A stretch of 18,280 nt of DNA from a virus (taxonomy: Duplodnaviria > Heunggongvirae > Uroviricota > Caudoviricetes), in IMG/VR virus record IMGVR_UViG_3300010261_000182; one strand, written 5' to 3'. The translations under genes and the position numbers were made by a program. The notes beneath the pieces are model-generated. The model searched no databases. It saw nothing but the letters and a program-made list of their open reading frames with translations, and was not told the origin of the DNA. The stretch's first letter is position 1, and each line of letters opens with the position of its first letter. Below are positions 590-17,644 of this stretch, piece after piece.

Positions 590-885
590 TTATTTTTACT
601 TGTAGTGTAAAAAGATCGTTTCCCTCACAGTCGCTGACTTTCTTAAACAAACTTTAAAAATCAAATAACTATCGAATATTCCTACGATCCACCATCATCT
701 TTCCCCTGCATAATGATGCACTTGTTCGCCAGGTCACCTTTTGCTCTTTTATTGACGGGTGGATTTATTAGCGGGCATGTTCATTTATAGAGAATCTATT
801 TTTTAAACTTATTTATTAAAGCTTTTTTCATTCTTCACTGGCGGGTTCTGACGACACTAAACGCTCATTTATCAGGAGATATCGT

Positions 886-1173: not shown

Positions 1174-1175
1174 TG

Positions 1176-1781: not shown

Positions 1782-1793
1782 TCAGAGGGGCCG

Positions 1794-2108
1794 ATGAAAC
1801 TCAGTATCGATTTTTGGGAAGTGATCTCCCTTATGCTTTCCTTCGTTGGATTAATGTTTGCTGCCGGAAAATTGCTGTTAGCGCAAATTGAAAAAAGACT
1901 TAATGAGCGTTTTGAATCTCTGGAAAACGCGCGCCGGGAATCAGAAACAAGTTGGTCGAAACTGGAAAGAGAGTTTCTTGAATTTCGTGCCGAGCTTCCG
2001 CTGCATTATGTCCGCAGAGAAGATTATCTTCGTGGGCAAGCAGTATTAGAAGCAAAGCTGGATGCCTTATATAGCAAAATCGAGCTATTACAACGTGGCA
2101 GTTATTAA
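1794..2108 (+). CDS. Lysis-associated membrane protein (Rz/i-spanin-like or holin-like)
   Basis: 104-aa ORF with GAGGGG SD. One N-terminal transmembrane segment (VISLMLSFVGLMFAAGKLLL) is followed by a charged, helical, coiled-coil-like region. It is the last gene of the lysis cassette before a terminator. No embedded lipoprotein (o-spanin) ORF was recognised. Confidence 0.35.
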   Translation: MKLSIDFWEVISLMLSFVGLMFAAGKLLLAQIEKRLNERFESLENARRESETSWSKLEREFLEFRAELPLHYVRREDYLRGQAVLEAKLDALYSKIELLQRGSY

Positions 2109-2114
2109 ATACAT

Positions 2115-2146
2115 CCCCACCTTTACGTAAGTGTGGGGGTTTTTTA
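2115..2146 (+). terminator. Rho-independent terminator after the lysis cassette
   Basis: Stem CCCCAC (2115-2120) pairs with GTGGGG (2133-2138). The loop contains the palindrome TTACGTAA. A T-run follows at 2140-2146. Confidence 0.7.
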
Positions 2147-2254
2147 TAGCCATTCAATTTTTTCTCTAAATCACATTAAAAGATTCTTCACCTTCACTGC
2201 TTCAGAATATATCTCAACGATAACGAAGTGAGCGGTAATTAAGGTACAGCCTAT

Positions 2255-2710
2255 ATGGAAATTTTATCTGTAATGAATTGTGTCGTGACAAGATTACGTG
2301 AGCACAACCCCGAAATGGACGTATTTATTTCATCTACGGATGCCCAGAAATATATTCCACAGACACAACAAGTTGCGGTGATTGTTAATTATAGCGGTTC
2401 TGTCTTTACCACGCCCGAAAGCAGTGATGCCATCGTGCAACAGCAAATACTTCGCTTAACCGCCACCGTTATTGTTGGCAAAAATTGTGACGCGTTAAAC
2501 GCACTTGATCACATACGCAGCGCATTGGGTGGCCTTCAGCTTCCTGATTGCGATCGTCTGCTTTGGCTTGAAAAAGAAATTAATACAGGTGAGAGCGGCG
2601 GTTTCTGCCGCTACATCCTAGAAATGGCGACCAGCTCGCTGTTTATCGCGAAACGGGAAAGCACGGACCTTACCCTGCTTACGGAAGTTAATTACGAGGA
2701 AACTGAATGA
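2255..2710 (+). CDS. Conserved Mu-like structural protein (gp37-like; tail completion/terminator candidate)
   Basis: 151-aa ORF, first gene after the terminator, directly upstream of the sheath gene and coupled to the next ORF by an ATGA overlap. The function is inferred from position in Mu-type late clusters and is weakly supported. Confidence 0.4.
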   Translation: MEILSVMNCVVTRLREHNPEMDVFISSTDAQKYIPQTQQVAVIVNYSGSVFTTPESSDAIVQQQILRLTATVIVGKNCDALNALDHIRSALGGLQLPDCDRLLWLEKEINTGESGGFCRYILEMATSSLFIAKRESTDLTLLTEVNYEETE

Positions 2711-2904
2711 AATACATCTACAACGGCCCGGCAAGCGGCGTCACCCTTGCCGACGGACAAGAAATCTTATTGTGGCCGAACAGTGAAATTGATCTGCCAG
2801 AAGACAACGAGTGGGTCATGACCATGATTGCCCGCAATCATCTGACTCCTGTCATCACTCAGGAAGAACAAAATAACGGAGAGGAAATTGTACATGGCAG
2901 CTAA
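2707..2904 (+). CDS. Small Mu gp38-like protein of unknown function
   Basis: 65-aa ORF coupled by ATGA overlap to the upstream gene and overlapping the sheath start. The call is positional. Confidence 0.35.
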   Translation: MKYIYNGPASGVTLADGQEILLWPNSEIDLPEDNEWVMTMIARNHLTPVITQEEQNNGEEIVHGS

Positions 2905-4318
2905 TTATCTGCACGGTGTAGAAACCATTGAAATTGAAACCGGCCCGCGTCCGGTTAAAGCGGTAAAATCCGCCGTCATCGCTTTAATCGGTACGGCCCC
3001 CTGTGGTCCGGTAAATAAACCAACATTATGCCTTTCTGAAAGCGATGCTGCGCAGTTTGGTTCGACTCAGACTAACTTTACGATCCCACAGGCACTGAAG
3101 GCGATTTATGACCACGGTGCCGGTACGGTGGTGGTGATTAACGTGCTGGATCCGGCAAAACATGGCTCCAACATCAGCAATGAGAGTATCACTTTTGATG
3201 CTAACAACCAGGCGAAACTCACTCACCGCAATGTGCGTAACGTGGTTCTAAAGCCCTCTTCATCAAATTCATCAACCTATAACACCGCAGCATTTAGCGT
3301 AGATGAACAAACAGGCATAATTACCCGTACAGGAGCCGACATTCCTCCTGGTGCGAAAGTTTGCGCCTATTATTCCTGGTGCGACCCTACAAAGGTCACC
3401 GCAGCCGATATTATCGGTGCCGTTAATACCGCAGGCGATCGCACGGGGATGAAACTGCTACAGGACACCTATAACCTGTATGGTTTCTACGCCAAAATCC
3501 TGCTTGCTCCCGTGTTCTGTACGCAAAAATCAGTAACTACAGAGCTGATTGCACAAGCGGAAAAACTTGGTGCGATTACCTACATTGATGCCCCGATTGG
3601 GACGACATTCCAGCAGGTATTGGCAGGACGCGGTTCGCAAGGGGCTATCAACTTCAACACCAGCTCTGATCGTGCGCGTTTATGTTACCCACACGTCAAA
3701 GTTTACGATGGCATCACTAACCAAGAAGTTCTCGAACCGCTCTCTTCGCGCGCTGCCGGGCTACGTGCCAAAGTAGACCTCGAAAAAGGTTTCTGGTGGA
3801 GCAACTCAAACCAAGAAATTCAGGGTATTACCGGTATTGAACGTTCGCTTTCCGCAATGATTGATGATCCACAAAGCGAAGTGAATCAGCTAAACGAAAA
3901 CGGCATTACCACTATTTTCAATAGTTACGGCTCTGGTCTGCGCTTGTGGGGCAACCGCACTGCAGCGTGGCCTACCGTGACCCATATGCGTAACTTTGAA
4001 AACGTCCGCCGGACAGGCGATGTAATTAATGAGTCAATCCGTTATTTCAGTCAGCAGTATATTGATATGCCGATTAATCAGGCGCTGATTGATGCCCTGA
4101 CCGAATCGGTAAATACCTGGGGCCGTAAGCTGATTGCCGACGGCGCACTGCTTGGCTTTGAATGCTGGTACGATCCGGCGCGAAATTCACCGACTGAACT
4201 CAGCGCCGGGCATTTATTGCTTAGCTATAAATTCACCCCGCCGCCGCCGCTGGAACGTCTGACGTTTGAAACTGAAATTACTTCTGAATATTTAGTCTCT
4301 CTGGAGAGCAATAGCTAA
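2894..4318 (+). CDS. Contractile tail sheath protein
   Basis: About 474 aa from ATG 2894, with GGAGAGG about 9 nt upstream; the track start at 2888 is TTG. Size and N-terminus (MAANYLHGVETIEIETGPRP) are typical of Mu gpL / P2 FI-class sheath proteins. It is followed by the tube gene with a TAATG overlap. Confidence 0.8.
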   Translation: MAANYLHGVETIEIETGPRPVKAVKSAVIALIGTAPCGPVNKPTLCLSESDAAQFGSTQTNFTIPQALKAIYDHGAGTVVVINVLDPAKHGSNISNESITFDANNQAKLTHRNVRNVVLKPSSSNSSTYNTAAFSVDEQTGIITRTGADIPPGAKVCAYYSWCDPTKVTAADIIGAVNTAGDRTGMKLLQDTYNLYGFYAKILLAPVFCTQKSVTTELIAQAEKLGAITYIDAPIGTTFQQVLAGRGSQGAINFNTSSDRARLCYPHVKVYDGITNQEVLEPLSSRAAGLRAKVDLEKGFWWSNSNQEIQGITGIERSLSAMIDDPQSEVNQLNENGITTIFNSYGSGLRLWGNRTAAWPTVTHMRNFENVRRTGDVINESIRYFSQQYIDMPINQALIDALTESVNTWGRKLIADGALLGFECWYDPARNSPTELSAGHLLLSYKFTPPPPLERLTFETEITSEYLVSLESNS

Positions 4319-4842
4319 TGGCTGGAAAAATTCAAATTAACCGTATTACCAACGCCAATATTTATCTCGATGGTAATAACCTTTTAGGTCGTGCAACCGA
4401 AATTAAATTGCCGGATGTCAGTTTAATTATGCAGGAGCATAAAGCACTGGGCATGGTCGGCAAAATCGAACTCCCGGCAGGTTTCGATAAACTGGAAGGG
4501 GAAATTAAATGGAACTCCTTTTATCAGGACGTCATGCGTAAAACGGCAAACCCGTGGCAGGCGGTAGCATTACAGTGCCGCTCCAGTATTGATTGCTATA
4601 ACTCCCAGGGGAAAGCGAATCAATTAGCGTTAGTGACACATTTAACCGTGATGTTTAAAAAGAATCCACTGGGCACATTTAAACAGAATGAAAACCCGGA
4701 ATTCAGCAGCGCCTTTGGCTGTACTTATATTAAACAAGTGGTCGATGGTGAAACGCTGCTTGAACTTGATTATATGGCGAATATTTTTCGGGTTAACGGC
4801 GTGGATCAATTAAGTACCTATCGCAATAACATCGGTGGCTAA
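4318..4842 (+). CDS. Tail tube protein
   Basis: 174-aa ORF immediately after the sheath gene with TAATG coupling. Size and position match Mu gpM / P2 FII-class tube proteins. Confidence 0.8.
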   Translation: MAGKIQINRITNANIYLDGNNLLGRATEIKLPDVSLIMQEHKALGMVGKIELPAGFDKLEGEIKWNSFYQDVMRKTANPWQAVALQCRSSIDCYNSQGKANQLALVTHLTVMFKKNPLGTFKQNENPEFSSAFGCTYIKQVVDGETLLELDYMANIFRVNGVDQLSTYRNNIGG

Positions 4843-4846
4843 TTTA

Positions 4847-4866
4847 TTCGGGGCTACGGCCCCGAA
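4847..4866 (+). other. Stable intercistronic stem-loop (8-bp GC-rich stem, 4-nt loop)
   Basis: TTCGGGGC-TACG-GCCCCGAA lies directly after the tube stop codon. No T-run follows, so it is not a canonical intrinsic terminator. Confidence 0.55.
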
Positions 4867-4892
4867 CTTCGCAAAATAAATAAGGATACAAA

Positions 4893-5210
4893 ATGAAAGA
4901 GCATTATATCTTACAGTTCCCGTTTACTTCAGCGGCGGGAGACGTAATTAACACTCTGCAATTACGTCGCCTGAAAGTAAAAGATATGCGCAACGCGCGC
5001 CGGATCAGCGAAAAACCTGAAGAGTGGGATGAACCGCTAATGGCAGCAATGACCGGACTGGTGCCAGAAGATTTAGCTGAAATGGATTTGCTGGATTACC
5101 AGGCATTGCAGAAACGATTTCAATCCATGCTTAGCGTGGCTACAGAATCCGCCACTGTTATGGCAAGCGATGGCGTTACTGGCGAGATGGTTTCGCTTTC
5201 CGCCCAGTGA
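4893..5210 (+). CDS. Tail assembly chaperone (lambda G / P2 E analogue)
   Basis: 105-aa acidic ORF lying between the tube and tape-measure genes, the conserved position of the frameshift chaperone. AAGGA SD. An overlapping +1-frame ORF (5053-5298) continues past its stop. Confidence 0.6.
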   Translation: MKEHYILQFPFTSAAGDVINTLQLRRLKVKDMRNARRISEKPEEWDEPLMAAMTGLVPEDLAEMDLLDYQALQKRFQSMLSVATESATVMASDGVTGEMVSLSAQ

Positions 5211-5399
5211 GATAGACGCCCTTACCGTCGATGACTTTAGCAACTGGCTGGATGAAGCCAGCGCCCAAATAAAAATCGAATATGACTCGCAGACCTGATG
5301 TCTGCGAGTTTCCCAAGCCCGTCAGGTTTATTTCTTCCCTGCCCCTTTTTTTAGAAAAATAACCAGCGGGCCATTATCAATATTTAAAGAGAAACAATT

Positions 5400-7775
5400 T
5401 TGGCCAACGATATTATTACCCAGCTTCAGGCGCGTAATGAGACGTTGACGCAGGCAATAGCCCGTTACGGCTCACTCAACGCCAGAACATTGTTAACTCT
5501 CTCTACTCAGCAGGCGACAGTTATCAAACTAACGCAGCAGCTTGCCGATTCCGCTCTCCGCCTGGAGGAAAATAGCCGCAGCCGCGCTAATCTGATGGAG
5601 AAAACCCAAACATTTGCCGGGCAATTTAGCAAAGTATTCAATGTTGAAGCCCCCGACTGGAAGTTGCCGTATGAGTTTCAGGACAACATGGTCAATATGG
5701 CGACCAAAGGTGGGATGAATGCTACAACCCGCGAGACGCTCAGCCTTAATCTGCGCGACTGGAGCATGGATTTTAACCAGCAGCAGACCACCTTACAGAA
5801 CGCAGCCCAAACGCTGATCGAAGGCAATTTGTCGTCGATACAGGATCTCAACCGTTATATGCCGGAGATCGCCAAAGCTGCCACCGCCACGCGCGAAAGT
5901 GCTGAAACATGGGCGAATGCCGCGCTCGCAACCCATGATCGACTGAATATTGCCCCGGAAAATTTCCACGCCGCGCAAAACATGATGTACGGCATTAGCA
6001 AAAGCGGTGGGCCTGCCATTGCTGAACAAACGCAGTGGATAGAGAAATTTGCAGGTAAAACCGGCGCTCAGGGTCTGGAAGGTATGGCTGAACTGACCGC
6101 CACCATGCAGATCGCCATGAAAAACGGGGCCAGCGCCAGTGCGGCGGCGGAGAATTTCGACCACTTTCTGCAAACCACCTTTTCGAAAAAAACCGATAGC
6201 TGGTTCGCCAGCCAGGGCGTCGATCTGCAAGGCTCTCTGCTTGAACATCAGCAAAACGGTATGGGTGTTAGCGAAGCCATGACTCATATCGTACAAATGC
6301 AGCTTGAGAAGATGAATCCGGCGATCCTCGACACCTTCAAACGCACTATGCAGATTGAAGATTTATCTGCTCGCAGCAATGCGCTGCAATCGATGGTAAC
6401 GCAATTTAATCTGGGCGAAATGTTCGGCGATGCGCAAACGGTGGAATTCCTGGCACCTATGCTGGCGAATATGGAGGAATATCGCCAGTTAAAAGCCTCT
6501 GCCATGCAAGCCACCAGCAAGAATCTGATTAACGCTGACTTTTCTGCGCAAATGGCCTCGCCCATTGAACAGACTAAAGCGTTACAGCTGGCATTAAATG
6601 ATTTATGGCTCAGCATTGGTTTGCAGCTTATGCCGGCGATTGGCGAGCTGGCACAAAGCCTTACGCCGGTTATTCGCCAGTTCAGCGCCTGGCTACGCGA
6701 ACATCCGGCGCTGGTGCAAAACATTGCGAAAATCGTCGGGGCGGTTTGGCTGTTTAACGGCGCGCTGAATGTTTTAAAGCTGGGCGCGAACCTCATCACC
6801 TCGCCGTTTATTCGTCTGGTCGATATCTTCCTGAAAGTCAAGGCAAGTCTGGCGCTCACAGGCGGGGCAAATAAGATGCTATCAGCGGTTAAGTCATTGG
6901 GTGGCGGCGCAAAATGGCTAATGCAACTGCTTGGTCGTGGCCTGATTGGCGCACTGAAACAGGTAGGTCAGACCGTCTTCTGGTTGGGTAGGGTTTTATT
7001 GATGAATCCCATTGGTCTGGTCATCACTGCGATTGCGGGCGCTGCTTATCTGATTTGTCGCAACTGGGAGCCTATCTCCAGGTTCTTTTCGACCATCTGG
7101 CAACGTATCACCACAGCCTTTGACGGCGGCATTGCAGGAATTTGTCGGTTGATTCTCGACTGGTCACCGCTGGAGTTGTTCTATAGCGCCTTTTCCAGTG
7201 TGATGAATTGGTTTGGTGTCGAGATGCCTGCAAGTTTTAGCGAGTTCGGCAGCAATCTTCTGGGCAGTCTGGTTGACGGCATAATGAATGCCTTCCCCGC
7301 TCTGAAAGGCATTATTGATCAGGTAAAAAACGCCATCCCAGACTGGCTAAAAACCACGATGGGTATTAGTACAGAAGGATCGGCTACAGCTATTACAAGC
7401 ACGACTAATACCGCATCCGTCTCCCCCGCGACCGTTGTTCCAGGCGTTGCCGGTGCGATTTTAACGCCGCCGGTGGGCAAACAACTCGCGCCATCCGGCA
7501 AAACGGCTACGCCGTCATCGGCGCCAGCGGCAAAAAATACAGCCGCCAAACCCGTATCTGCCTCTTTACCTGGTAAATCCGTAACCAAACCGGCGACGCT
7601 ACCCTCCCGTTCCTCAGGAAAAGTCCAGGTAAATTTTTCGCCACAGATTACCGTGCAGGGAAACGGACAAAACACCACTAAAGACATTCAGAACGTGTTG
7701 ACGATGAGTAAACGCGAACTGGAAAGAATGATTAACGACGTAATGGCGCAACAACAGCGCCGGGGGTATGCCTGA
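5400..7775 (+). CDS. Tail tape measure protein
   Basis: 791-aa ORF with a helical N-terminal region, internal hydrophobic segments and a Ser/Thr/Pro/Ala-rich low-complexity C-terminal region. It sits between the chaperone and baseplate genes. The apparent start is TTG 5400 with AAAGAG upstream, so the start is uncertain. Confidence 0.8.
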   Translation: MANDIITQLQARNETLTQAIARYGSLNARTLLTLSTQQATVIKLTQQLADSALRLEENSRSRANLMEKTQTFAGQFSKVFNVEAPDWKLPYEFQDNMVNMATKGGMNATTRETLSLNLRDWSMDFNQQQTTLQNAAQTLIEGNLSSIQDLNRYMPEIAKAATATRESAETWANAALATHDRLNIAPENFHAAQNMMYGISKSGGPAIAEQTQWIEKFAGKTGAQGLEGMAELTATMQIAMKNGASASAAAENFDHFLQTTFSKKTDSWFASQGVDLQGSLLEHQQNGMGVSEAMTHIVQMQLEKMNPAILDTFKRTMQIEDLSARSNALQSMVTQFNLGEMFGDAQTVEFLAPMLANMEEYRQLKASAMQATSKNLINADFSAQMASPIEQTKALQLALNDLWLSIGLQLMPAIGELAQSLTPVIRQFSAWLREHPALVQNIAKIVGAVWLFNGALNVLKLGANLITSPFIRLVDIFLKVKASLALTGGANKMLSAVKSLGGGAKWLMQLLGRGLIGALKQVGQTVFWLGRVLLMNPIGLVITAIAGAAYLICRNWEPISRFFSTIWQRITTAFDGGIAGICRLILDWSPLELFYSAFSSVMNWFGVEMPASFSEFGSNLLGSLVDGIMNAFPALKGIIDQVKNAIPDWLKTTMGISTEGSATAITSTTNTASVSPATVVPGVAGAILTPPVGKQLAPSGKTATPSSAPAAKNTAAKPVSASLPGKSVTKPATLPSRSSGKVQVNFSPQITVQGNGQNTTKDIQNVLTMSKRELERMINDVMAQQQRRGYA

Positions 7776-8728
7776 TGTATGCCGTTTTAGGAGAGATTGA
7801 ATTTAAGGTTGTCACATTCTGGGACGGCTTTAAAAGCACAATGGGCGTGGATTACGCCACACATGCCCGTATAGAAGGCAAACCCGGCGTGCAGTTTATT
7901 GGCGATAAGCTGGATATGCTGGCGCTGGAATTTTCCCTGCACAGCCAGTTTTGCCAGCCCACAACAGAGCTGAACCGACTGCGTGAAGCCATGCTTGCTC
8001 ACAAGGCGATGGCACTGGTATTTGGCAATGGCGATTATCGCGGCTGGTTTGTGATTACGGAGCTAACCGCCACCCACCAGCACACCGATCCCTGGGGCAA
8101 TGTGATTGCCCAAAACGGAACGATGTCGCTCCAGGAGTACACCGGCGATCCTAAAAATCCACTTTTACCTCCGGCGATTACCACCCAGGAGCCCAACATC
8201 GAGGAAAAGGCGAGCGATTTTCCCGACAAGGTGGAGTCCTGGTTTGATCAGATATTAAACGCCATTGAAGAAGGTATGCGTAAGGCCAAAGAGATGCTGG
8301 ATGAACTGACACAATCCATTGAAGATATTAAAAAAACGGTGGCAAAAGTGAAAGCAATGATTAAAGAGGCCAAAGCGTTAAAAGAAAAGTGTGAAAAGAT
8401 AATTACGTCATTGAAAAAGACAATCGACGCCATCGAAACCCTGTTTAAACAGCCAATGGATCTGCAAACGCTGGCAGGCCTACCAAAAGCGTTGTCGGCG
8501 CAGATTAAAGCTTTACTGGGTAACATGCCAGGTATCCGGGACTGCGCCAATGACGCCAGTACGCTGGTTGACCATGCTCAGGCGCTTTTCGACGACATTA
8601 CCAGCGACATCGCCGAAGCGACGTTCGATAAAGCCACGTCGTTGGTTGAGCAGGCACGTACAACGGTACAACAAACCACTCCCGCAGTGAGCCAGCTTGC
8701 TGCCGTAACCATTACCAGGAGCTGGTAA
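7775..8728 (+). CDS. Tail protein of the P2 gpU / Mu N (DNA circularization protein) family
   Basis: 317-aa ORF coupled by TGATG overlap to the tape-measure gene. The N-terminal ~130 aa (MYAVLGEIEFKV...DYRGWFVITEL) follows the gpU/N pattern as remembered. The C-terminal part is a K/E-rich helical extension. Confidence 0.55.
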   Translation: MYAVLGEIEFKVVTFWDGFKSTMGVDYATHARIEGKPGVQFIGDKLDMLALEFSLHSQFCQPTTELNRLREAMLAHKAMALVFGNGDYRGWFVITELTATHQHTDPWGNVIAQNGTMSLQEYTGDPKNPLLPPAITTQEPNIEEKASDFPDKVESWFDQILNAIEEGMRKAKEMLDELTQSIEDIKKTVAKVKAMIKEAKALKEKCEKIITSLKKTIDAIETLFKQPMDLQTLAGLPKALSAQIKALLGNMPGIRDCANDASTLVDHAQALFDDITSDIAEATFDKATSLVEQARTTVQQTTPAVSQLAAVTITRSW

Positions 8729-8937
8729 TGCGATACCTTGAACATATCACCACCGATGGCGAACGCTGGGATAACCTGGCATGGCATTACTACGGTGATG
8801 CGCTGGCTTATGAACGCATAATCGCCGCCAATCCACATGTAGCCATTTACCCGGTACTGCCTTCCGGTATTCAGCTCATTATTCCGGTCATTTCCGTTAA
8901 TAAAACCTTATCGGAGATCCCACCATGGCTGAGATAA
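8728..8937 (+). CDS. Tail protein X-like (LysM-like) small protein
   Basis: 69-aa ORF with TAATG coupling. GERWDNLAWHYYGD...IIAANPHVA...VLPSGIQLIIP matches the remembered P2 gpX pattern (GDTLD..YYG...ANP...LP.G..V.LP). Confidence 0.6.
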   Translation: MRYLEHITTDGERWDNLAWHYYGDALAYERIIAANPHVAIYPVLPSGIQLIIPVISVNKTLSEIPPWLR

Positions 8938-9965
8938 GCGTAACTGGTGGCGTCTTTGCCACACTCACGCCCATTTTTACCCTCTGGTATGGGCATAAAG
9001 ATATCACTTATGACATCACACCCTATGTCACCAGCATCAGTTACCACGACAGCATCAAAAACGAGTCGGATACCATCGCAATTACACTGGATGACACAGA
9101 TGGACGCTGGATAAAAGAGTGGTATCCCGGCAAAGGCGATACGCTGGCGCTGCATATGGGTTATCAGGGAGAGAAGCTGCTCGATTGTGGTCAGTATATT
9201 ATTGATAAAATTGATATTTCAGCGCCACCTTCCACGGTAAATATTGATGGCATCGCCACTTCCGTCAATCAGGCGCTGCGCACCCGTAACAGCCAGGGCT
9301 TTGAAGAAACGACGCTTTCGGCGATCGCCAGCCGTATTGCCCAAACGCACGGTCTGAAACTGGTGGGCAAAATCGAGTCGCTCACCATCGACCGGGTAAC
9401 GCAGTATGGTGAAACCGATGTCGGATTTCTCAAACGTATGGCCAGTGAATATGGTTATGCCGTAAAAGTGACGACAAAAGAGCTGATTTTTTCACATTTA
9501 CCCACGCTGCGCTGCCTGGCACCGGTAAAAAAGATCGAGCGCAAAGAGGTTTCTCATTTTACCTTCAAAGACACCATTAACCGGATCTACAAGAACGCCA
9601 CCGTACAGCATCAAAATAGTAAGAAAAAAGAACTGGTTATCTACACTCACGACAGCCAGCAAAAACCATCTGTCCGTGGAGTCGGCACTAGTGCCGACAC
9701 GCTAAAACTGAACAGTCGGGCGACGGACGTTGGCGCAGCACAGGCAAAGGCTAACGCTGCACTCGACAGCCACAACGAATATCAGCAAACCGGAACGCTC
9801 ACAATGATGGGCTGCCCGGAACTGACGGCGGGCAATAAAATCGAGCTAACCGATTTTGGCGTGCTTTCCGGTCAATGGCTAATTGATAAATCTACTCACA
9901 GTTTTGTGCGCAGCGGCTATACCACTGAAATCGACGTGTCGCGCGGGCCAGCGACCAGCCAGTAA
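8925..9965 (+). CDS. Baseplate hub protein, P2 gpD / Mu P-like (late control D family)
   Basis: 346-aa ORF. The segment ETDVGFLKRMASEYGYAVKVTTKELIFSHL resembles the conserved gpD-family core. It sits upstream of the spike gene. Confidence 0.65.
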   Translation: MAEISVTGGVFATLTPIFTLWYGHKDITYDITPYVTSISYHDSIKNESDTIAITLDDTDGRWIKEWYPGKGDTLALHMGYQGEKLLDCGQYIIDKIDISAPPSTVNIDGIATSVNQALRTRNSQGFEETTLSAIASRIAQTHGLKLVGKIESLTIDRVTQYGETDVGFLKRMASEYGYAVKVTTKELIFSHLPTLRCLAPVKKIERKEVSHFTFKDTINRIYKNATVQHQNSKKKELVIYTHDSQQKPSVRGVGTSADTLKLNSRATDVGAAQAKANAALDSHNEYQQTGTLTMMGCPELTAGNKIELTDFGVLSGQWLIDKSTHSFVRSGYTTEIDVSRGPATSQ

Positions 9966-9974
9966 GGAGGAAAT

Positions 9975-10634
9975 ATGAAAGGAGTAACCCGGCAAACGGG
10001 GATTATCAGCGATATTGACGAAACCAGCGTTCGGGTGCGAGTCACGCTCCCAGAGTGTGACAATCTGAAGAGCAACTGGCTTGCGGTACTTCAACGCAAT
10101 TCCCAGGACAATAAAGACTACTGGCTACCGGATATGGGCGAGCAAGTGGAAGTTCTGCTGGACAATAACGGTGAAGATGGCGTGGTGCTGGGCGCAGTTT
10201 ATTCTACGGTTGACACCGCGCCTGTGGCCTCGCGCGATAAACGTTACGTCCAGTTTTCTGATGGCGCAGCGTTTGAATATGACCGCAGCACGCACCAGCT
10301 GACGATTAACGGCGGTATCGAGAAAATCGTGATTGAGGTTATCGACCGTACCAGCCTGACATCGCCCAACGTTGAGATTAAAGCCCAACAGGTCATCGTG
10401 ACTTCCGATACTGTCGATGTTAAAGCGGCAGCAGTGACGGTAGATGCGCCCATGAGCACCTTTACTGGCAACGTCACGGTAATGAAAAAACTCACCTGGC
10501 TTGGCGGGATGGCAGGAAGTGGAGGCATCGGTAACGCCGCCACAATAACCGGCAATGTCAACGTGATCGGCAACGTTCAGGCCAGCGGCGCATTGCAGGA
10601 CAGTGGTGGCAACTCCAACCACCACTCACACTGA
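9975..10634 (+). CDS. Baseplate central spike, gpV-like
   Basis: 219-aa ORF with strong AAGGAGG SD. The N-terminal OB-like segment (NWLAVLQRN...YWLPDMGEQVEVLLDNNGEDGVVLGAVYS) matches the gpV pattern. The C-terminus is Gly/Asn/Val-rich and repetitive (GNVNVIGNVQASG) and ends in NHHSH. Confidence 0.7.
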   Translation: MKGVTRQTGIISDIDETSVRVRVTLPECDNLKSNWLAVLQRNSQDNKDYWLPDMGEQVEVLLDNNGEDGVVLGAVYSTVDTAPVASRDKRYVQFSDGAAFEYDRSTHQLTINGGIEKIVIEVIDRTSLTSPNVEIKAQQVIVTSDTVDVKAAAVTVDAPMSTFTGNVTVMKKLTWLGGMAGSGGIGNAATITGNVNVIGNVQASGALQDSGGNSNHHSH

Positions 10635-10639
10635 CGTTT

Positions 10640-10669
10640 AACCCGCCTGATGGCGGGTTTTCTCTTTTT
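10640..10669 (+). terminator. Rho-independent terminator or attenuator inside the baseplate region
   Basis: AACCCGCC (10640-10647), loop TGAT, GGCGGGTT (10652-10659), followed by TTCTCTTTTT. It starts 6 nt after the spike stop codon. Confidence 0.6.
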
Positions 10670-10732
10670 AATCAATCAGTTTTCTAAATCGCTTTAATAT
10701 CACCACAGCCCGTTCAGGGCGAAAATACCCTC

Positions 10733-11092
10733 ATGAACACAAAAACACGACCCTCAACGCTGCACTGGCAACCGGCCTTGCTGCGGCCTGAAGAATACGT
10801 CTGCGGACTGGATGATATTCACCAGGCAATACACATCATTCTGCGTACACCGCGCGGCAGTGATCCCCACAGACCGCTGTTTGGCAGCAACTTGTGGCAC
10901 TACATCGATTACCCCATCGAGCGGGCTATCCCGCATGTGGTACGGGAGTCGGTGGAAGCCATCCGCCAGTGGGAACCGCGCTGTCGGTTGCTGAAGGTGA
11001 CACCAGTAATCGACGGCGAACATCTGACGTTACGTGTGCAATGGCGCGCCGCTGACGGCGTTATCAACTCAACGGAGGTGTTATGGCGATAG
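10733..11092 (+). CDS. Baseplate protein, gpW / T4 gp25-like
   Basis: 119-aa ORF. IHQAIHIILRTPRGSDPHRPLFGSNLWHYIDYP matches the GPW/gp25 family pattern as remembered. Confidence 0.7.
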   Translation: MNTKTRPSTLHWQPALLRPEEYVCGLDDIHQAIHIILRTPRGSDPHRPLFGSNLWHYIDYPIERAIPHVVRESVEAIRQWEPRCRLLKVTPVIDGEHLTLRVQWRAADGVINSTEVLWR

Positions 11093-12198
11093 CCGAACCC
11101 AATTTTATTGACCGCGATCCTGCGCAAATTACCAGTGAGATGATTGCGCAATACGAAGATGCCAGTGGTAAAAAACTCTATCCGGCACAGGCTGAACGGT
11201 TGCTCATCGACCTGTTTGCCTATCGTGAAAACCTTGTACGCATCGCCATTCAGGAAGCGGCGAAACAGAACCTGGTCGCGTATTCCCGCGCGCCAATGCT
11301 GGATTATTTAGGGGAGTTGGTGGGCGTTCACCGTTTGCCTGCGCAGCCGGCAAAAACGACGTTGCAGTTTTCGGTCGTCAGCGCGTATACCAGCAATATC
11401 CTGATTCCCCAGGGGACGCGGGCCAGTGCCTCTGATAGCGTGATGTTCGCCACCGATGAAGATGTTCTGCTTCCGGCCAGGAGTTTGCATATCGCCGTTC
11501 CTGCCACCAGCCTCGCAGCAGGTGAACAGGGTAACGGCTGGCAGCCTGCACAAATTAGCGCACTGGTCGACAGGATTGGTCATTATGACATCAACGTAAC
11601 CAACCTGACTGCGTCAACGAGCGGCTGCGGTGAAGAGAGCGATGACGCATTGCGCCAGCGTATCCAACTGGCACCAGAAAGCTTTAGTAATGCGGGCAGC
11701 TATGGTGCCTACCGCTTTCATACGCTTTCTGTTAGCCAGTCGATTATTGACGTTGCAGTACTGGGGCCGGACGAGGGATTGCCAGAAGGCTGCGTGGAGA
11801 TCTACCCGCTAACCCTGAATGGTCTACCCGGCACGGAGTTGCTGGCGCAGATTGAACAAGAAGTCAGCAAGGAGAAAAAACGACCGCTGACCGACAAAGT
11901 GAGTGCGAAATGCGCTCTTCGAGTGCCGTATGAGATCCGTGCGCAGCTAACGCTGTTTACCACCGCCGATCAGGAGACAACGCTGGCTGCGGCGCGTAAA
12001 GCGATTAGCCTCTGGACGCAACAGCGGCAGAAACATCTGGGGCAGGACATTGTGCCAAACCAGATAATCAAAGTGTTACAGGTCGATGGCGTCTATGACG
12101 TTGCGCTGAATATGCCTACAAAACGTATTTTGCAGGCGCATGAGTGGGCGGAATGCACCGCAATAGACGTCACGATTGCCGGAGTCAGCGATGGATAA
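11083..12198 (+). CDS. Baseplate wedge protein, gpJ-like
   Basis: 371-aa ORF with GGAGG SD, overlapping the end of the gpW-like gene. Position and size match baseplate J family proteins. Confidence 0.7.
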   Translation: MAIAEPNFIDRDPAQITSEMIAQYEDASGKKLYPAQAERLLIDLFAYRENLVRIAIQEAAKQNLVAYSRAPMLDYLGELVGVHRLPAQPAKTTLQFSVVSAYTSNILIPQGTRASASDSVMFATDEDVLLPARSLHIAVPATSLAAGEQGNGWQPAQISALVDRIGHYDINVTNLTASTSGCGEESDDALRQRIQLAPESFSNAGSYGAYRFHTLSVSQSIIDVAVLGPDEGLPEGCVEIYPLTLNGLPGTELLAQIEQEVSKEKKRPLTDKVSAKCALRVPYEIRAQLTLFTTADQETTLAAARKAISLWTQQRQKHLGQDIVPNQIIKVLQVDGVYDVALNMPTKRILQAHEWAECTAIDVTIAGVSDG

Positions 12199-12907
12199 AT
12201 TGCTGCCACCGCCGCCGCTTGCCAGCGATGAGCGTTTTTCGATTCTGGCAAACATCGCCGCCGAGCGTTTTGCCCAACTCGATCTGACGGCGTTGATGGT
12301 TTATCTGGTCGACCTGGTTGATGCTTCGGCATTACCAGCCCTTGCAGAACAATTTCACGTTCAGGGGCTGGAAGGTTGGTTATTTACCACCGATGAGCGG
12401 GAGAAACGCGAGTTAATTAAACAAGCCATTGAACTGCATAAATATAAAGGAACAATTTGGGCGGTGCGGCGGGTGCTGGAAATACTCTCCTTACCCGGAA
12501 CTATTTCAGAATGGTTTGAATATGGGGGAAGGGCTTACTTTTTTAAGGTTGATATTACACTAGAGGAAAAAGGATTAAATGAAGATGAATTCAATGCACT
12601 TATCACATTAATTCATGAATATAAAAATGTCCGATCAAAGCTGGAAAGCATTGTTATTTGGCTTATTAATCGAAGCCCAATACCAGTTATTGGCAGTGCC
12701 ATGCAAGGAGGGGAAGTCATTACAGTATTGCCTCCTGTTGCAGAAAGCCTCAGCCAGTCATCTGGAATATTTTTAGCGACAGGTTATTGTGTGGAGGAAT
12801 ATATTCAACTACTACCTTATCAACCCGTTCGACTAACACAATCCCAACCGATGAAGGTCGGCACAGGATACTGGAGCACCGAAATTATGTCTGTATATCC
12901 GGAGTAA
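12191..12907 (+). CDS. Baseplate/tail protein, P2 gpI-like
   Basis: About 238 aa from ATG 12191, with GGAG at 12181-12184; the track start at 12176 is TTG. The N-terminus [22 protein letters not shown] is typical of the gpI family. The C-terminal half is markedly AT-rich. Confidence 0.6.
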
Positions 12908-12909
12908 TA

Positions 12910-14550
12910 ATGGCAAGTGAATTTTTTACAATATTAACTGCTGCAGGCAAAGCCAAAATTGCCTCAGCACTGGCCGAGCAAAAACAGATCCGTCTGCAAA
13001 CTATGGTAGTTGGCGACGGTAATGGTAAATATATCGAACCGACAGAAAGTCAGACCAAAGTAGTCCATGAGGTCTGGCGTGGTCAGCTCAATACATTAAA
13101 AATTGCGCCAGATAATCCGGCCTGGGTTATCGCAGAAGCGATTATTCCCGAACAAGTCGGAGGCTGGTATGTACGCGAAGTTGGGTTACTGGATACCGAC
13201 GGCACGATGGTCGCTATTGGTAAATTCCCGGAAACCTATAAGCCACGATTACCTGCGGGGGCCAGTAAGCAAATCGTTATACGCGCGGTCATGGAAGTCA
13301 CCAATGCAGATGCGGTGACGCTTTTGATCGACCCTTCAGTCGTTGTGGCAACCAGGGAATATGTCGATGACGCGTTGAAAACACATCAGCAATCACGAAA
13401 TCATCCTGATGCGACGCTGACACAAAAAGGTTTTACGCAGCTGAGTAATGCGACTAATAGCGATGATGAAACCAAAGCGGCCACGCCAAAAGCGGTAAAA
13501 ACGGCATATGACCTGGCAAATAGCAAAGCTGCCACCAGTCATAATCATGCCTGGAATCAGATTACTGGTATCCCTGATGGTACACTGACGCAGAAAGGAG
13601 TCGTTAAGCTTAACAATACAACAAATAGCACCAGTACGACGGAAGCTGCAACACCAAGTGCGGTTAAGGCAGCGATGGATAAGGCTATTGCTGCGGCACC
13701 GTCCAGCCATACCCATGCCTGGGGGCAAATAACAGGTATCCCCGACGGTACGCTGACGCAAAAAGGGGTCGTGAAACTTAATAATGCGACCAACAGCACC
13801 AGTACGACGGAAGCTGCAACGCCGAACGCTGTTAAGGCAGCGATGGATAAGGCTATTGCTGCGGAAAGCTGTCCTGTAGGGATGCCTATTCCTTGGCCAT
13901 CTGATTCTATACCTTCAGGCTACGCTCTGATGACAGGTCAGACATTTAATAAAGCCTCCTATCCCAAACTGGCAATTGCATATCCATCTGGTGTTATTCC
14001 TGACATGCGCGGATGGATAATTAAAGGAAAACCATCCAGTGGGCGAGCTATATTATCTACTGAACTGGATGGAATTAAATCACATAACCATACGGGCAGT
14101 ATTTCGAGTACTGATTTAGGGACAAAGGCAACATCATCTTTTGATTTTGGACACAAAACGACATCTGCCTCTGATCTTGGTTCTAAGACAACATCGTCGT
14201 TCAATCACGGAAGTAAATCGTCGACCAGCACAGGGGGCCATTCACATCAAATAACATGTAAAGGTGATGCTGATTACGGTGGCAATGCACTAACCGCTGA
14301 TTCTATAGGTGACTCTCGTTATGACTACGTTAATACCGATACTGTAGGTGATCACTCTCATACTACAGCCATTGGTACCCATGCACATACTATCGCATTG
14401 GGTAGCCATACACATGAACTTTCAATTGGCACCCATTCGCATTCAATTGCCCTTGGTTCCCATAATCACTCCCTAACCATTAATAATACCGGCAACACCG
14501 AAAACACCGTCAAAAATATCGCATTCAACTATATTGTGAGGCTAGCATGA
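12910..14550 (+). CDS. Tail fiber protein
   Basis: 546 aa from ATG 12910, with GGAG at 12901-12904; the upstream in-frame extension in the track is rejected. It has a conserved gpH/S-type N-terminus ([24 protein letters not shown]...MVVGDGNG), internal 56-aa tandem repeats, and a C-terminal region of short periodic repeats with five HxH motifs. Confidence 0.85.
13408..13866 (+). repeat. In-frame tandem repeat, period 168 bp, about 2.7 copies, inside the tail fiber gene
   Basis: Protein units [12 protein letters not shown]... / [40 protein letters not shown] / [40 protein letters not shown]. Copies 2 and 3 are near-identical at nucleotide level. The antisense ORF 13557-13799 shows the same peptide at both ends. 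Confidence 0.85.
14349..14469 (+). repeat. 27-bp (9-aa) periodic repeat encoding five HxH motifs in the tail fiber tip
   Basis: [42 protein letters not shown]; the repeat is also visible at nucleotide level (ggtacccatgcacatactatcgcattg / ggtagccatacacatgaactttcaatt ...). Confidence 0.8.
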
Positions 14551-15254
14551 ATACTTTTACCTTTTCCGATGAAGCTCAAATACTAACTGTATATAATTTT
14601 TCACAAGACTCCCAAGAATATATCGGTGAGTCTGATGCATACATTGCACCTAATACAGGCTTGCCAAATTATTGCACATTAATTTCACCTCCCGAAAAGG
14701 TTCCTGGTTTTACTCCAGTGTGGGAGAATGAAACATGGAGATTTATTGAAGATCATCGAGGCCAAACTGTTTATAACAAAGTTGATGGTAGCCAGCTTAT
14801 TATTCAAGAATTGGGCCAATTACCTGAAAATGTAACAGTCATTTCCCCGACAGGTTCTTTTGAACGTTGGGATGGTGAAAAATGGCAACCATCTATAACC
14901 GATGCTAAAGAGGCGAAATACTCTGCAATCAAAAATCAACGCGATGCCATCACAACCGATTACATCATCATCAACAACCATCACTTCCACAGTGATACAA
15001 ATAGCCGTATCCAGCAGCTCTCACTCACAAAAATGGGAGCGGAGAAAAAAATTCCGCCAGGGTTAATGTGGAAAACTAAAAATAATGGTCTGATCGAGTT
15101 AACCAACGAAATCGCCGCCCAGTTTGAATCGGTCACCATGGATCACGATATGCGCTTGTTCGCAAACGCCCAGCACCATATCGCGGCGGTGGAAGCACTG
15201 GACGATATTCAGGCGGTGCTCGACTACGATTATTCAACAGGCTGGCAACCATGA
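14547..15254 (+). CDS. Putative tail fiber assembly chaperone
   Basis: 235-aa ORF coupled by ATGA overlap to the tail fiber gene, with GAGG SD. The call is positional. The 5' half is AT-rich like the fiber tip, consistent with a co-transferred fiber/chaperone unit. Confidence 0.5.
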
Positions 15255-15691
15255 GTAAAACCACTGTCTGGCTCGCTTGTTATAAGGGCCGAACAGAGCA
15301 CCGTGGTATTGCCCGACTGGCTGACTGGCTTACCCGTAAAATCACACGCGGCAGTTATTCCCACTGTGAATTAGCCGTTAAGCATGGTGAAAAGAGTTAC
15401 CTTTGTTACTCCGCATCACTGCGCGATCGCGGTGTACGCGGAAAAATAATGCCATTGCCAGCGGATAAGTGGGATATGCTGCCGCTCCAGGCCAGCCTTC
15501 AGGATGTGGAAACTTTTTTCCGTAAACATGATGGCAAAAAATATGACTGGCGCGGAGCATTAGGAATTATTATCGGTAATAAAGAACAGCGCGATCGCCT
15601 GTTTTGCAGTGAATTTTGTGCTGAATTTCTGCAACTGAAGGAAAGCTGGCGCTATTCTCCAAACCACTTGTACGCTTTAGTCAGCAGTTAG
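15251..15691 (+). CDS. Hypothetical protein, possible permuted papain-like (NlpC/P60-LRAT/YiiX-like) enzyme
   Basis: 146-aa ORF coupled by ATGA overlap to the fiber chaperone gene. YSHCELAV (His-containing) lies upstream of LFCSEFCAEF (Cys-Ser-Glu-Phe), which is reminiscent of permuted NlpC/P60 catalytic motifs. This is a weak, unverified resemblance. Confidence 0.35.
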   Translation: MSKTTVWLACYKGRTEHRGIARLADWLTRKITRGSYSHCELAVKHGEKSYLCYSASLRDRGVRGKIMPLPADKWDMLPLQASLQDVETFFRKHDGKKYDWRGALGIIIGNKEQRDRLFCSEFCAEFLQLKESWRYSPNHLYALVSS

Positions 15692-15710
15692 CAATACCAG
15701 CAATAAATCA

Positions 15711-15731
15711 CGCCGGGCTTTATGCCCGGCG
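15711..15731. terminator. Hairpin between convergent operons (candidate bidirectional terminator)
   Basis: CGCCGGGC-TTTAT-GCCCGGCG, an 8-bp GC stem. It overlaps the stop codon of the minus-strand nucleotidyltransferase gene and lies 20 nt after the + strand 146-aa gene. Flanking T-richness is only moderate. Confidence 0.5.
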
Positions 15732-16520
15732 CATTACCGTTTGATACAGCAAATTATCTAGCTCCCGAACATCTCCATCTCGACTGTCCGGTAAAATCGG
15801 TGGAATTTCCCCACGCGCCAGTTCCGCACGAATAAACGCATGTAACAAAGGACGGCGCGGACCATATTCCGCTTCTCCCGCGCGCTGTTTACGTTCCAGC
15901 AGTTCGTCTATTTCTACGCGTAACGGCGCATCAAGCTCGCTTCCCGCCAGTAACTCGGCAAAGCGCATTGGCGGCACGCCTTTTCCCGCTTCAACCCAGC
16001 GTACGGCCAGCAGCGGACGCAGCACGTAAAAGTATTTTTTCAGTCGAACTTCATCGCCCTGCAAATAGCCGCGGAAGTTTTTCTGCGCCATCGAATAGTA
16101 ATGCCAGCGTGCACGCAACGAAGAAAACCACATTGGGACCATTGCCTTAAGCGCCGTTATCGTTTCTTCATCTTGTTGATAGACCACCGGAGAATCCAGC
16201 CATTCTATCAGCGTCGGATTCGCGCCTTTCAATAATCCCAGCGCCTTACGCCACTCCCAACCGGAAACATCTAATTCGTCGTCGATGGGCAGCTCGATAA
16301 CATCGCGCGGTGACTCTACACGCAGATACCATTCCAGCGGATGGACATACAAAAACCGTACATCGTAGTCGCTATCGGGCGAGGCAAATCCCCAGCCGCG
16401 GCTGCCTGATTCGCAGGCGTACAGCACTTTCACGCCATAGAGACGTTCTATTTCTTTTAACTGCTGCGATACCCGTTCGCGCATCGCAGCACTGACTCCA
16501 TTTAATGGTATGTTACTCAC
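15720..16520 (-). CDS. Pol-beta superfamily nucleotidyltransferase
   Basis: 266-aa ORF. LYACESGSRGWGFASPDSDYDVRF fits the hG[GS]x9-13Dh[DE]h signature, with acidic residues downstream (IDDELD). The GTG start overlaps the upstream stop as GTGA; an alternative in-frame ATG lies at 16484. Confidence 0.7.
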   Translation of the reverse strand: MSNIPLNGVSAAMRERVSQQLKEIERLYGVKVLYACESGSRGWGFASPDSDYDVRFLYVHPLEWYLRVESPRDVIELPIDDELDVSGWEWRKALGLLKGANPTLIEWLDSPVVYQQDEETITALKAMVPMWFSSLRARWHYYSMAQKNFRGYLQGDEVRLKKYFYVLRPLLAVRWVEAGKGVPPMRFAELLAGSELDAPLRVEIDELLERKQRAGEAEYGPRRPLLHAFIRAELARGEIPPILPDSRDGDVRELDNLLYQTVMRRA

Positions 16521-17644
16521 CCTTTGATATTAACCAACCCATGCAGAACCTGATCCAGACCGCCAAATACAGAGATGTTATCGATCCGCTCAGCCACTCT
16601 CTCCAGCGTTTCCAGTTCTTTTAAGCGTAACGCCACCGGGTTGTTTTCCATGACTTTAGCGGTATTGAGTAACGAACGTGTCGCTGCCGTTTCTTCACGC
16701 CGACGAATCACATTCGCCTGCGCAGATTTCTCTGCCTCAACCAGCTGCGCGAGGATATTTTTCATATCACCAGGCAGGACGATATCTTTCACCCCTAATG
16801 AGGCAATCTCCATACCAAATGGCAACATACGCGATTTAACCTGTTCGCTGACAACGTCATCAATGACCTGTTTATCTTCCAGCAACTCATCCAGCGTACG
16901 CGTACCTACCGCTTCACGCAGTGCAAATTGCAATTCCCGATACAAATGATCAATCGGCTTCGTTAACTGACTAAATGCCAATAACACGTCGCTGTAGCGC
17001 CAGTTGGCGGCGAGGTTAATCCGCAGATTGACCTTATCTTTCGTTAAGATTTCTTGCCCGCTGACTTCCAGTACCTGCAAGCGGGTGTCAACCACTTCAG
17101 CTTCAACCAGATGGTTAATTTTCCAGTACGCAGTCAGTCCCGGCGGTAACAGCGCCTGCGTTTTACCATCGATTTTCAGTACACCTACGTGCCAGGCCGG
17201 AACCTGCACCGTCAGTATCGCATCGCGGCCTTTAACTGCCCCTTTGCGCCGTGGCTGCAATACCGCATTCATCACCTCCGTTTGAACCTGGACTTGCTGC
17301 GTATTCATCCGCACAAGCGTCAAATCATCCTCTACACGCCAGTACAAACGACGCGTTGATGGCGGCAGGATCTCCAGCAAAATACCGTCCATATACAACG
17401 CCCCGGCTTCAGTCTCCGACAAGTCGGCCACCACGCAATATCTTTCCACCCACTCTGGCTGAAAGCGACGCAAATAATCCGCCAGCACGTCGGGAACTTC
17501 GCTGCCATCGAGCGTAATCAGCAAGACTTCTGGCGTATTTAACCAGGGTAAAAGATGCTCGCCTGCATGCAGCACTTTGTAGTAATCGCCATTTCTGGAG
17601 AGTAATGCCAGCTGATCTTTTCTTACGCTTATTTTCTTAATCAT
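16517..17644 (-). CDS. SPFH/band-7 (stomatin-prohibitin-flotillin-HflK/C) domain protein
   Basis: 375-aa ORF with AAGGA SD. The C-terminal ~220 aa (VQVPAWHVGVLKIDGKTQALLPPGL...DIVLPGDM...AEKSAQANVIRRREE...) has typical band-7 features. No N-terminal transmembrane helix is evident. Confidence 0.7.
   Translation of the reverse strand: MIKKISVRKDQLALLSRNGDYYKVLHAGEHLLPWLNTPEVLLITLDGSEVPDVLADYLRRFQPEWVERYCVVADLSETEAGALYMDGILLEILPPSTRRLYWRVEDDLTLVRMNTQQVQVQTEVMNAVLQPRRKGAVKGRDAILTVQVPAWHVGVLKIDGKTQALLPPGLTAYWKINHLVEAEVVDTRLQVLEVSGQEILTKDKVNLRINLAANWRYSDVLLAFSQLTKPIDHLYRELQFALREAVGTRTLDELLEDKQVIDDVVSEQVKSRMLPFGMEIASLGVKDIVLPGDMKNILAQLVEAEKSAQANVIRRREETAATRSLLNTAKVMENNPVALRLKELETLERVAERIDNISVFGGLDQVLHGLVNIKG

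Follow-up and report, generated by a model that had tools for sequence, protein, structure and literature searches.

The closest described relatives of the protein discussed here are the permuted NlpC/P60 enzymes YiiX from Escherichia coli (PDB entry 2IF6) and BcPPNE from Bacillus cereus (PDB entry 3KW0), whose solved chains comprise 180–190 residues and whose catalytic set consists of Cys, His, Glu and Tyr (Xu et al., 2011; PMC3142127). A fatty acid was found bound to YiiX and lysine to BcPPNE, leading to the proposal that such enzymes cleave lipid–amino acid amide bonds, and their hydrophobic S1 pocket is built by the β1–β2 and αD–αF regions (PMC3142127). The same permuted core, in which His precedes Cys, and an acyl-thioester mechanism are found in the LRAT/PLAAT (H-RAS-like suppressor) and picornavirus 2A H-box/NC proteins. 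IMG/VR record IMGVR_UViG_3300010261_000182, a stretch of 18,280 nucleotides from a virus of the class Caudoviricetes that is referred to as the window, encodes a smaller protein of this superfamily, with 146 residues, as the final gene of a tail cluster. While enzymes of the YiiX/BcPPNE type are encoded by solitary chromosomal genes, those of the window family are found in phage tail operons behind the gene of a fibre chaperone.

The assignment to this superfamily is based on profile and structure comparisons. A profile of 74 homologues matched only two chains among the PDB sequences at E ≤ 10, namely BcPPNE (3kw0, 'cysteine peptidase'; E = 2.5e-5), for which the His and Cys regions aligned separately, and YiiX (2if6; E = 0.72), for which only the His region was aligned. 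An AlphaFold model calculated on the same 74-homologue alignment (predicted local distance difference test, pLDDT, 83; predicted template-modelling score, pTM, 0.81) consists of five strands and then helices, Cys119 being the first residue of one of them (residues 119–126). The protein is accordingly modelled as a papain-like α+β core in circularly permuted arrangement, with the β-sheet subdomain first and the Cys-bearing helical subdomain second. Foldseek recovered 3kw0 as the sole significant match in the PDB (E = 4.6e-4, probability 1.00); all of the structures matched were permuted NlpC/P60 proteins, with 112–120 positions aligned, and among the viral ones is an entry called 'Permuted papain-like amidase enzyme, YaeF/YiiX, C92 family'. 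A permuted papain-like fold with His before Cys had been suggested by a sequence-only reading of the stretch, which named a fold search as a check; the suggestion is upheld by the profile matches, by the invariant His38 and near-invariant Cys119, and by the recovery of 3kw0 from the predicted structure. Another match to the model is an 821-residue 'cysteine peptidase' of Myoviridae sp. ctwwN25 in BFVD (A0A8S5PP64; E = 5e-4, query template-modelling score 0.61), in which a permuted papain-like domain may be fused to a large, perhaps structural, phage protein; such a fusion, if genuine, bears on whether enzymes of this type ride on particles.

The relationship to Pfam family PF05708 (Peptidase_C92) is more distant. 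Its gathering threshold is not reached by the family, as only two of the 74 relatives match it, both below threshold and with a best E value of 0.0053, and scans of the window protein against Pfam at E ≤ 10, NLPC_P60 and crotonase included, and against NCBIfam returned no match. A bridging sequence is provided by the metagenomic myovirus MW202455 (UOF76987; L093:3354-3797), which matches PF05708 at E = 2e-4 with 21.9 bits against a cut-off of 27, and the family profile with an hhalign probability of 98%. The window protein thus belongs to the YaeF/YiiX-type permuted NlpC/P60 superfamily and lies outside Pfam C92 proper, both by threshold and by its lack of the triad Glu described below.

While a word-indexed search identified 89 homologues, an exhaustive profile search retrieved 4,509 representatives of 50%-identity clusters at E ≤ 1e-3, nearly all of them stand-alone proteins of 135–170 residues; of these, 1,917 reached E ≤ 1e-10. 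The protein is marked by a signature of its own, YSHCE…SSxRDGGVR…KWD…YDW…FCSE…SPN. The window protein matches PHROG 1128 (E = 2.1e-57, residues 1–145 on profile positions 20–169 of 381), which is labelled 'enoyl-CoA hydratase/carnithine racemase-like', and the same enoyl-CoA label is carried in GenBank/RefSeq by SuMu gp51, RSA1 open reading frame (ORF) 26, RsoM1USA gp26, RP12 ORF176, V22 and Pasteurellaceae genomes. A metabolic enzyme resembling enoyl-CoA hydratase or carnitine racemase has these database names in its favour and nothing further; with no crotonase match in Pfam at E ≤ 10 and a fold that matches permuted NlpC/P60 proteins only, this identity is rejected with near certainty. At 146 residues, the protein is roughly half the length of the usual crotonase-fold enzyme. 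Pfam leaves the enzyme clade uncovered, and the enoyl-CoA name has been propagated without sequence or fold support; the present analysis corrects this misannotation and defines a clade outside Pfam coverage. One family member of 227 residues (P0197) carries a C-terminal extension with a lipoprotein-like signal (…AAFSLALAGCATP…). The gene call has probably run together with a neighbouring gene, perhaps a spanin-like one downstream; alternatively, the protein may genuinely be fused to a lipoprotein.

Residue conservation was assessed over 149 divergent family representatives, in addition to the alignment of 74. Both motifs pointed out in the sequence-only reading are present, YSHCELAV at residues 36–43 (nucleotides 15356–15379) and FCSEFCAEF at residues 118–126 (nucleotides 15602–15628); the second is upheld in part, since Cys119 is 99% conserved and Cys123, the second Cys of FCSEFC, is not among the positions with at least 80% conservation. 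His38 and Cys119 align with the catalytic His and Cys of BcPPNE and are the predicted general base and nucleophile. Trp74 is conserved in all of the representatives, as is Tyr98, the candidate oxyanion residue, which lies outside the profile alignment and precedes Cys119 by 21 residues, compared with 13 in YiiX and 27 in BcPPNE. The acid of the triad is different. Glu64 of YiiX/BcPPNE, located on the strand adjacent to the His, aligns with Ala55 of the window protein, a position occupied by Ser (81%) or Ala (19%) in the family, whereas the His+2 position, which is Gly in YiiX/BcPPNE, is occupied by Glu40. Alignment and conservation suggest that Glu40 probably stands in for the missing triad Glu, the acid having been shifted to His+2, or that the acid is dispensable, as in LRAT, where the third triad residue is not essential (PMC3142127). 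Asp59 aligns with Asp68 of BcPPNE, a residue in contact with the amine group of the lysine ligand (PMC3142127), which hints that the substrate or acceptor may carry an amine. The lack of the canonical Glu, together with the minimal size of the domain and its tight coupling to a chaperone gene, could also be taken as signs of an adaptor or scaffold without catalytic activity, which would have retained the papain-like fold solely to bind partners, for instance in the manner of a co-chaperone. We regard this as very improbable: His38, Tyr98 and Cys119 are present in 148–149 of the 149 representatives and Glu40 in 99%, a pattern that fits a working active site, and the argument from the missing Glu is further weakened by the non-essential third triad residue of LRAT.

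The position of the gene behind that of a tail-fibre assembly protein recurs in nearly all members of the family. With its many homologues, its selective constraint and its recurrence in E. coli genomes, the gene goes far beyond a chance reading frame. The 146-residue gene and the ATGA overlap of its start with the upstream stop, noted in the sequence-only reading, are read directly from the sequence, and the overlap strongly suggests that translation of the enzyme gene would be coupled to that of the assembly gene. Among 83 phage loci from IMG/VR and GenBank, a four-nucleotide overlap of the start with the stop of an upstream same-strand ORF is found in 59, and the two genes overlap or abut in 74; after dereplication at 70% identity the overlap is kept in 22 of 25 clusters. 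Bacterial assemblies sampled at one genome per species gave a similar picture, with the overlap present at 57 of 75 informative non-edge loci from Enterobacteriaceae, Pasteurellaceae, Neisseriaceae and Moraxellaceae. The upstream ORF encodes about 150–275 residues in nearly all loci, and a single BLAST-linked family covers 78 of the 83. Pfam recognized DUF4376 in 36 of 54 dereplicated partners and Caudo_TAP in 13; when ten further partners were compared with PHROG, eight belonged to tail-fibre assembly or tail-fibre families (8258, 2618, 105 and 188), one matched only a family of unknown function and one matched none. The idea that the partner is always a DUF4376 protein was rejected, as the upstream partners in Pasteurellaceae and Neisseriaceae are tail-fibre assembly proteins of PHROGs 8258, 2618 and 105. 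When phage genomes were searched with the DUF4376 part alone, 15 records were retrieved, and the enzyme gene lies directly downstream in every one of them.

The same arrangement extends to distant phages. In Alteromonas phage V22, ORF26 (fibre), ORF27 (DUF4376 chaperone) and ORF28 ('permuted papain-like amidase') form a trio, and the order fibre, DUF4376 chaperone, enzyme is repeated in MW202455, with starts that overlap or nearly abut. The two enzymes are related (tblastn E = 8e-12), are closer to PF05708 than the window family and lack its S-S-x-R-D-G-G-V-R signature; both are annotated as 'permuted papain-like amidase', whereas members of the enterobacterial clade are annotated as hypothetical proteins or enoyl-CoA hydratases. 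The P2-like Ralstonia phages RSA1 and RsoM1USA contain the same trio, with the enzyme gene located between the fibre-assembly and sheath genes, and in distant members (34–40% identity) the enzyme gene is preceded by a fibre-like gene and a small ORF. The 'accessory slot after the fibre chaperone' of the sequence-only reading was therefore correct as to position and understated as to extent, this location being conserved in Enterobacteriaceae, Pasteurellaceae, Neisseriaceae, Moraxella, Ralstonia, Alteromonas and Acidovorax.

Comparison of the loci further revealed which part of the host-range region the enzyme travels with. At least eight unrelated types of fibre C-terminus precede the enzyme module, even within the enterobacterial tail-only element, and a link of the enzyme to a single tip type, such as the HxH needle, is rejected by this diversity. 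The types include HxH needle tips and Gly-rich tips ending in GFVKISW. Over 946 locus pairs, the identity of the enzymes correlates with that of the DUF4376 domains with a Spearman coefficient of 0.84, compared with 0.29 for the N-terminal part of the chaperone; when the enzymes of a pair share 75% identity or more, the mean identity is 84% for DUF4376 and 33% for the chaperone N-part. In this lineage, the fibre tip and the chaperone N-part are therefore exchanged, between elements that differ little elsewhere, while DUF4376 and the enzyme stay, so that the aligned sequences define a swapped host-range cassette formed by the former and a constant right flank, inherited as a unit, formed by the latter. 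Hence, the function of the enzyme cannot depend on the receptor that is recognized by the fibre. Natural fusions of the enzyme to DUF4376 were sought among the longer family members and none was found. A constant DUF4376 runs counter to what is normally seen in tail-fibre assembly proteins, whose N-terminal domain is usually the conserved one.

The window protein is basic and contains no signal peptide, lipobox, hydrophobic stretch or membrane segment, and it is therefore not expected to be exported on its own. The V22 chaperone gp27 is absent from the final fibre complex (PMC7289586). The 11 abundant virion bands of RsoM1USA correspond to ORFs 6, 8, 9, 17, 18, 20, 22, 24, 27, 28, 30, 31 and 32; neither ORF25 (the assembly protein) nor ORF26 (the enzyme homologue) is among them, only abundant bands having been analysed. 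For SuMu, in which the proteomics was shallow, gp51 is not mentioned in the paper.

Our tentatively preferred reading is that the window protein is a thiol acyl/amide hydrolase or transferase that is produced late, resides in the cytoplasm and serves as a receptor-independent, non-structural accessory to fibre assembly. According to the chemistry of the family, Cys119, activated by His38, would attack an acyl carbonyl to form a thioester, which would be resolved by water (hydrolase) or by an amine or hydroxyl group (transferase). Tyr98 would stabilize the oxyanion, Glu40 would probably replace the missing triad Glu and Asp59 would probably hold a leaving group or acceptor that carries an amine, for example the side chain of a lysine. 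There are strong indications that the enzyme would be made only late, from the tail operon, appearing together with the tail-fibre assembly protein in the cytoplasm of the producer cell. There, it would most likely process, acylate or deacylate a component of the fibre–chaperone pair, or a molecule that interferes with this system, and so improve the assembly or performance of the particle without being required for fibre folding. A more specific proposal, which we consider rather unlikely, is that of a dedicated tail-fibre modifier that acylates, deacylates or clips the fibre tip or the chaperone, for example at a lysine, and thereby tunes release of the chaperone cap or the behaviour of the fibre at membranes. 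If true, this would be the first known enzyme devoted to tail-fibre maturation, and it would be spread across thousands of phages and tailocins.

Several observations weigh against an accessory role in fibre assembly. The slot after the fibre chaperone in P2-like phages also receives unrelated cargo genes. ATGA-like overlaps are the norm among neighbouring genes of the window operon, as judged from the ORF coordinates, so that the overlap marks the enzyme gene as an ordinary member of the operon and nothing special; given this and the cargo-prone slot, linkage by itself could account for some of the association. A homologue in the Ralstonia jumbo phage RP12 (L091, 174091–174534) stands by itself on the opposite strand in a block of hypothetical genes, outside any tail context, so that the enzyme can also occur with no chaperone as its partner. 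The roles of Tyr98, Glu40 and Asp59 in the proposed mechanism are read from alignment and conservation. In V22, the green fluorescent protein-tagged fibre gp26 binds host cells only when co-expressed with gp27, and the pair suffices (PMC7289586), while the related phage A5 possesses a DUF4376 chaperone, and nothing listed for it in the published comparison (PMC10579305) corresponds to V22 gp28. Fibre folding and receptor binding thus do not require the enzyme, and any role at the fibre must be subtle.

The function of the V22 fibre without the enzyme, the lack of a listed counterpart in A5 and the stand-alone homologue of RP12 would also suit a cargo (moron) gene acting in superinfection exclusion, tailocin self-immunity or host takeover, for which the post-fibre slot is merely a permissive site of insertion. 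The location of the RSA1 and RsoM1USA genes between the fibre-assembly and sheath genes points in the same direction, as the corresponding region of P2 holds a non-essential gene. On the other hand, no σ70-like promoter was found on the plus strand between positions 14300 and 15251, and in most lineages the start of the gene overlaps the late gene before it, so that expression would be expected only while particles are being made. The association of the same enzyme with many fibre tips means that it cannot be tuned to one receptor, and it is predicted to be cytoplasmic, while the exclusion proteins known to block receptors reside in the envelope. PADLOC-DB 2.0 gave no defence family for the window protein at E ≤ 0.01. 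Within the tail-only element the gene is under strong purifying selection, with a mean pairwise ratio of nonsynonymous to synonymous substitution rates (dN/dS) of about 0.075 over 22 enterobacterial alleles, which, together with its fixed position across several proteobacterial families, would be unusual for cargo. A cargo gene is for these reasons quite improbable, and the exclusion or immunity function raised by the sequence-only reading is disfavoured by the variety of fibre tips, the late-operon position and the lack of a detectable promoter.

A lipid-directed enzyme of the envelope, cleaving or transferring fatty-acyl groups of phospholipids, lipoprotein N-acyl chains or lipid A, is the alternative closest to the known relatives. 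It could act on the envelope of the producer cell at or after holin action, aiding release, or on the outer membrane of the target as a minor fibre-associated component of the particle, aiding penetration or killing. The fatty acid bound in YiiX (PMC3142127), the phospholipases Tox-Act1 and TseH (PMC12994826) and the participation of LnsA in lipoprotein N-acylation (PMC7387801) all speak for such chemistry. Lysis genes also lie close downstream in some phages, including a holin and a lysozyme in AP1, a lysis protein in pAN and a GH108-like gene in L088, and the 821-residue myovirus protein with a domain of this type is possibly a structural fusion. Nevertheless, the window protein lacks the signal peptide, lipobox or membrane segment expected of an envelope enzyme, it is shorter than the matched chains, and the regions that build the S1 pocket appear to map to shorter segments modelled with low confidence (pLDDT 60–76), in which a lipid tunnel is not evident. 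The homologue in RsoM1USA is not among the abundant virion bands, and the lysis genes of the window lie 13 kb away, at the opposite end of the operon. An action on lipids, which the sequence-only reading also raised, is therefore unlikely at either site, although it is the main rival and less improbable than a cargo function. If the enzyme does act on envelope lipids or lipoproteins, it would offer a tractable model with a clear phenotype for the poorly understood YaeF/YiiX-like enzymes.

Other systems that share elements of this chemistry differ in sequence or context. In the LRAT and H-box/NC proteins the Cys motif is of the NCEHF type and the C-terminus typically carries a membrane anchor, features that the window protein does not have. 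TseH and Tox-Act1 are secreted toxins of type VI secretion systems that are encoded with immunity genes near the secretion machinery, whereas the window gene has no immunity partner, secretion context or PADLOC match. Canonical NlpC/P60 peptidoglycan hydrolases have the papain-like Cys/His/Tyr chemistry in common with the window enzyme, and those that serve as tail-associated lysins of phages are a precedent for its phage-tail gene context. However, in the canonical enzymes Cys precedes His, the S1 site is hydrophilic and the proteins are exported or form part of the virion, whereas in the window enzyme His38 precedes Cys119 and no export signal is present. The role in the cell wall put forward in the sequence-only reading is its weakest guess, as the characterized peptidoglycan hydrolases are canonical, non-permuted enzymes.

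Although the fold name had already been given by annotators to a few distant relatives, the linkage to fibre assembly, the constant DUF4376–enzyme module and the shifted acid appear to be undescribed. A search of the available literature found no paper discussing the enzyme family or its linkage to fibre genes; in the V22 paper, ORF28 appears in a table only, as 'protein catabolism', and the linkage is not discussed. The range of bacteria open to attack by a phage or tailocin is set by its tail fibres and their chaperones, which are swapped by engineers for retargeting. A conserved enzyme linked to the constant half of the chaperone has so far escaped notice; it is represented by thousands of sequence clusters and occurs in several bacterial families. 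Should it prove to influence the assembly of the fibre or the potency of the particle, retargeting designs should include it.

The coordinates of the enzyme gene, its candidate active-site codons and the neighbouring features are collected in Table 1. Close relatives of the window protein are mostly 151 residues long, and the five residues lost by the window protein at its stop codon are not conserved across the family.

Table 1. Features of the enzyme gene and its surroundings (window positions).
Feature	Position	Strand	Details
Tail-only cluster	1-15691 (= L001 5455-21145)		Mor activator, holin, SLT lytic transglycosylase, sheath, tube, tape measure, baseplate, fibre, DUF4376 chaperone, enzyme gene
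Tail fibre gene	12910..14550	+	Pfam; start as in RefSeq; tail-collar domain at the N-terminus, fibre repeats, needle tip rich in HxH; 3' part forms the exchanged host-range cassette
Tail-fibre assembly protein gene	14547..15254	+	235 aa; Pfam: Caudo_TAP at residues 71-134, C-terminal DUF4376 at residues 119-227
Permuted NlpC/P60 (YiiX-like) thiol enzyme gene	15251..15691	+	ATG, 146 codons + TAG; 17 kDa, pI 9.5
ATGA start/stop overlap with tail-fibre assembly gene	15251..15254	+	ATG 15251-15253, upstream TGA 15252-15254; reads ...caacc ATGA gtaaa
His38 codon (CAC), putative general base (YSHCE)	15362..15364	+	Invariant, 74/74 and 149/149; aligns with catalytic His49 of BcPPNE
Glu40 codon, clade-specific acid at His+2	15368..15370	+	99% conserved; Gly in YiiX/BcPPNE (SHTG)
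R-D-x-G-V-R motif, residues 58-63	15422..15439	+	D59 93%, G61 98%, V62 95%, R63 97%; aligns with 'EDDGVR' of 3kw0
Tyr98 codon (TAT), candidate oxyanion/P1-carbonyl tyrosine	15542..15544	+	149/149; equivalence suggested by position
Cys119 codon (TGC), putative nucleophile (FCSE)	15605..15607	+	148/149, the remaining one a gap; aligns with 'ICSEF' of 3kw0; N-terminus of helix 119-126 in the model
Stop codon	15689..15691	+	TAG; TGG (Trp) in close relatives (P0001 and others, 147-151 aa), which read on as …SSWQYQQ
GC-rich hairpin	15709..15733	.	Between the operon end and the convergent RlaP gene; T-run on the minus strand only
RlaP-family nucleotidyltransferase (PF10127) and SPFH/slipin protein genes	15720-17644	-	Convergent pair just beyond the tail cluster

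The part of the window from 14547 to 16520 is 100% identical to the chromosomes of three complete E. coli genomes (A37, Q5 and GF130), and in A37 the element is inserted between lysC and yjbD. No head, replication or integration/integrase genes were found in the A37-type element, which is therefore a tail-only, tailocin-like cluster under the control of Mor and looks like a candidate R-type tailocin of E. coli. A literature search for a described E. coli tailocin at lysC–yjbD found none; kosakonicin was considered as a counterpart and rejected, as it is a different, P2-derived element. The enzyme gene is carried by 196 of 5,426 complete E. coli genomes, as a single chromosomal copy in each, where it is always annotated as 'hypothetical protein' and adjoins a 'DUF4376 domain-containing protein'. 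The IMG/VR 'proviruses' also include elements of 16–17 kb with a close homologue of the enzyme gene. The region of the RlaP-family and SPFH/slipin pair beyond the cluster, for neither protein of which PADLOC gave a match, is found in 1,630 of the 5,426 E. coli genomes, far more than the tail cluster. Three copies of the enzyme gene are present at separate loci in Bergeriella denitrificans and in Spirabiliibacterium pneumoniae, which fits the presence of several prophages or tail elements per genome.

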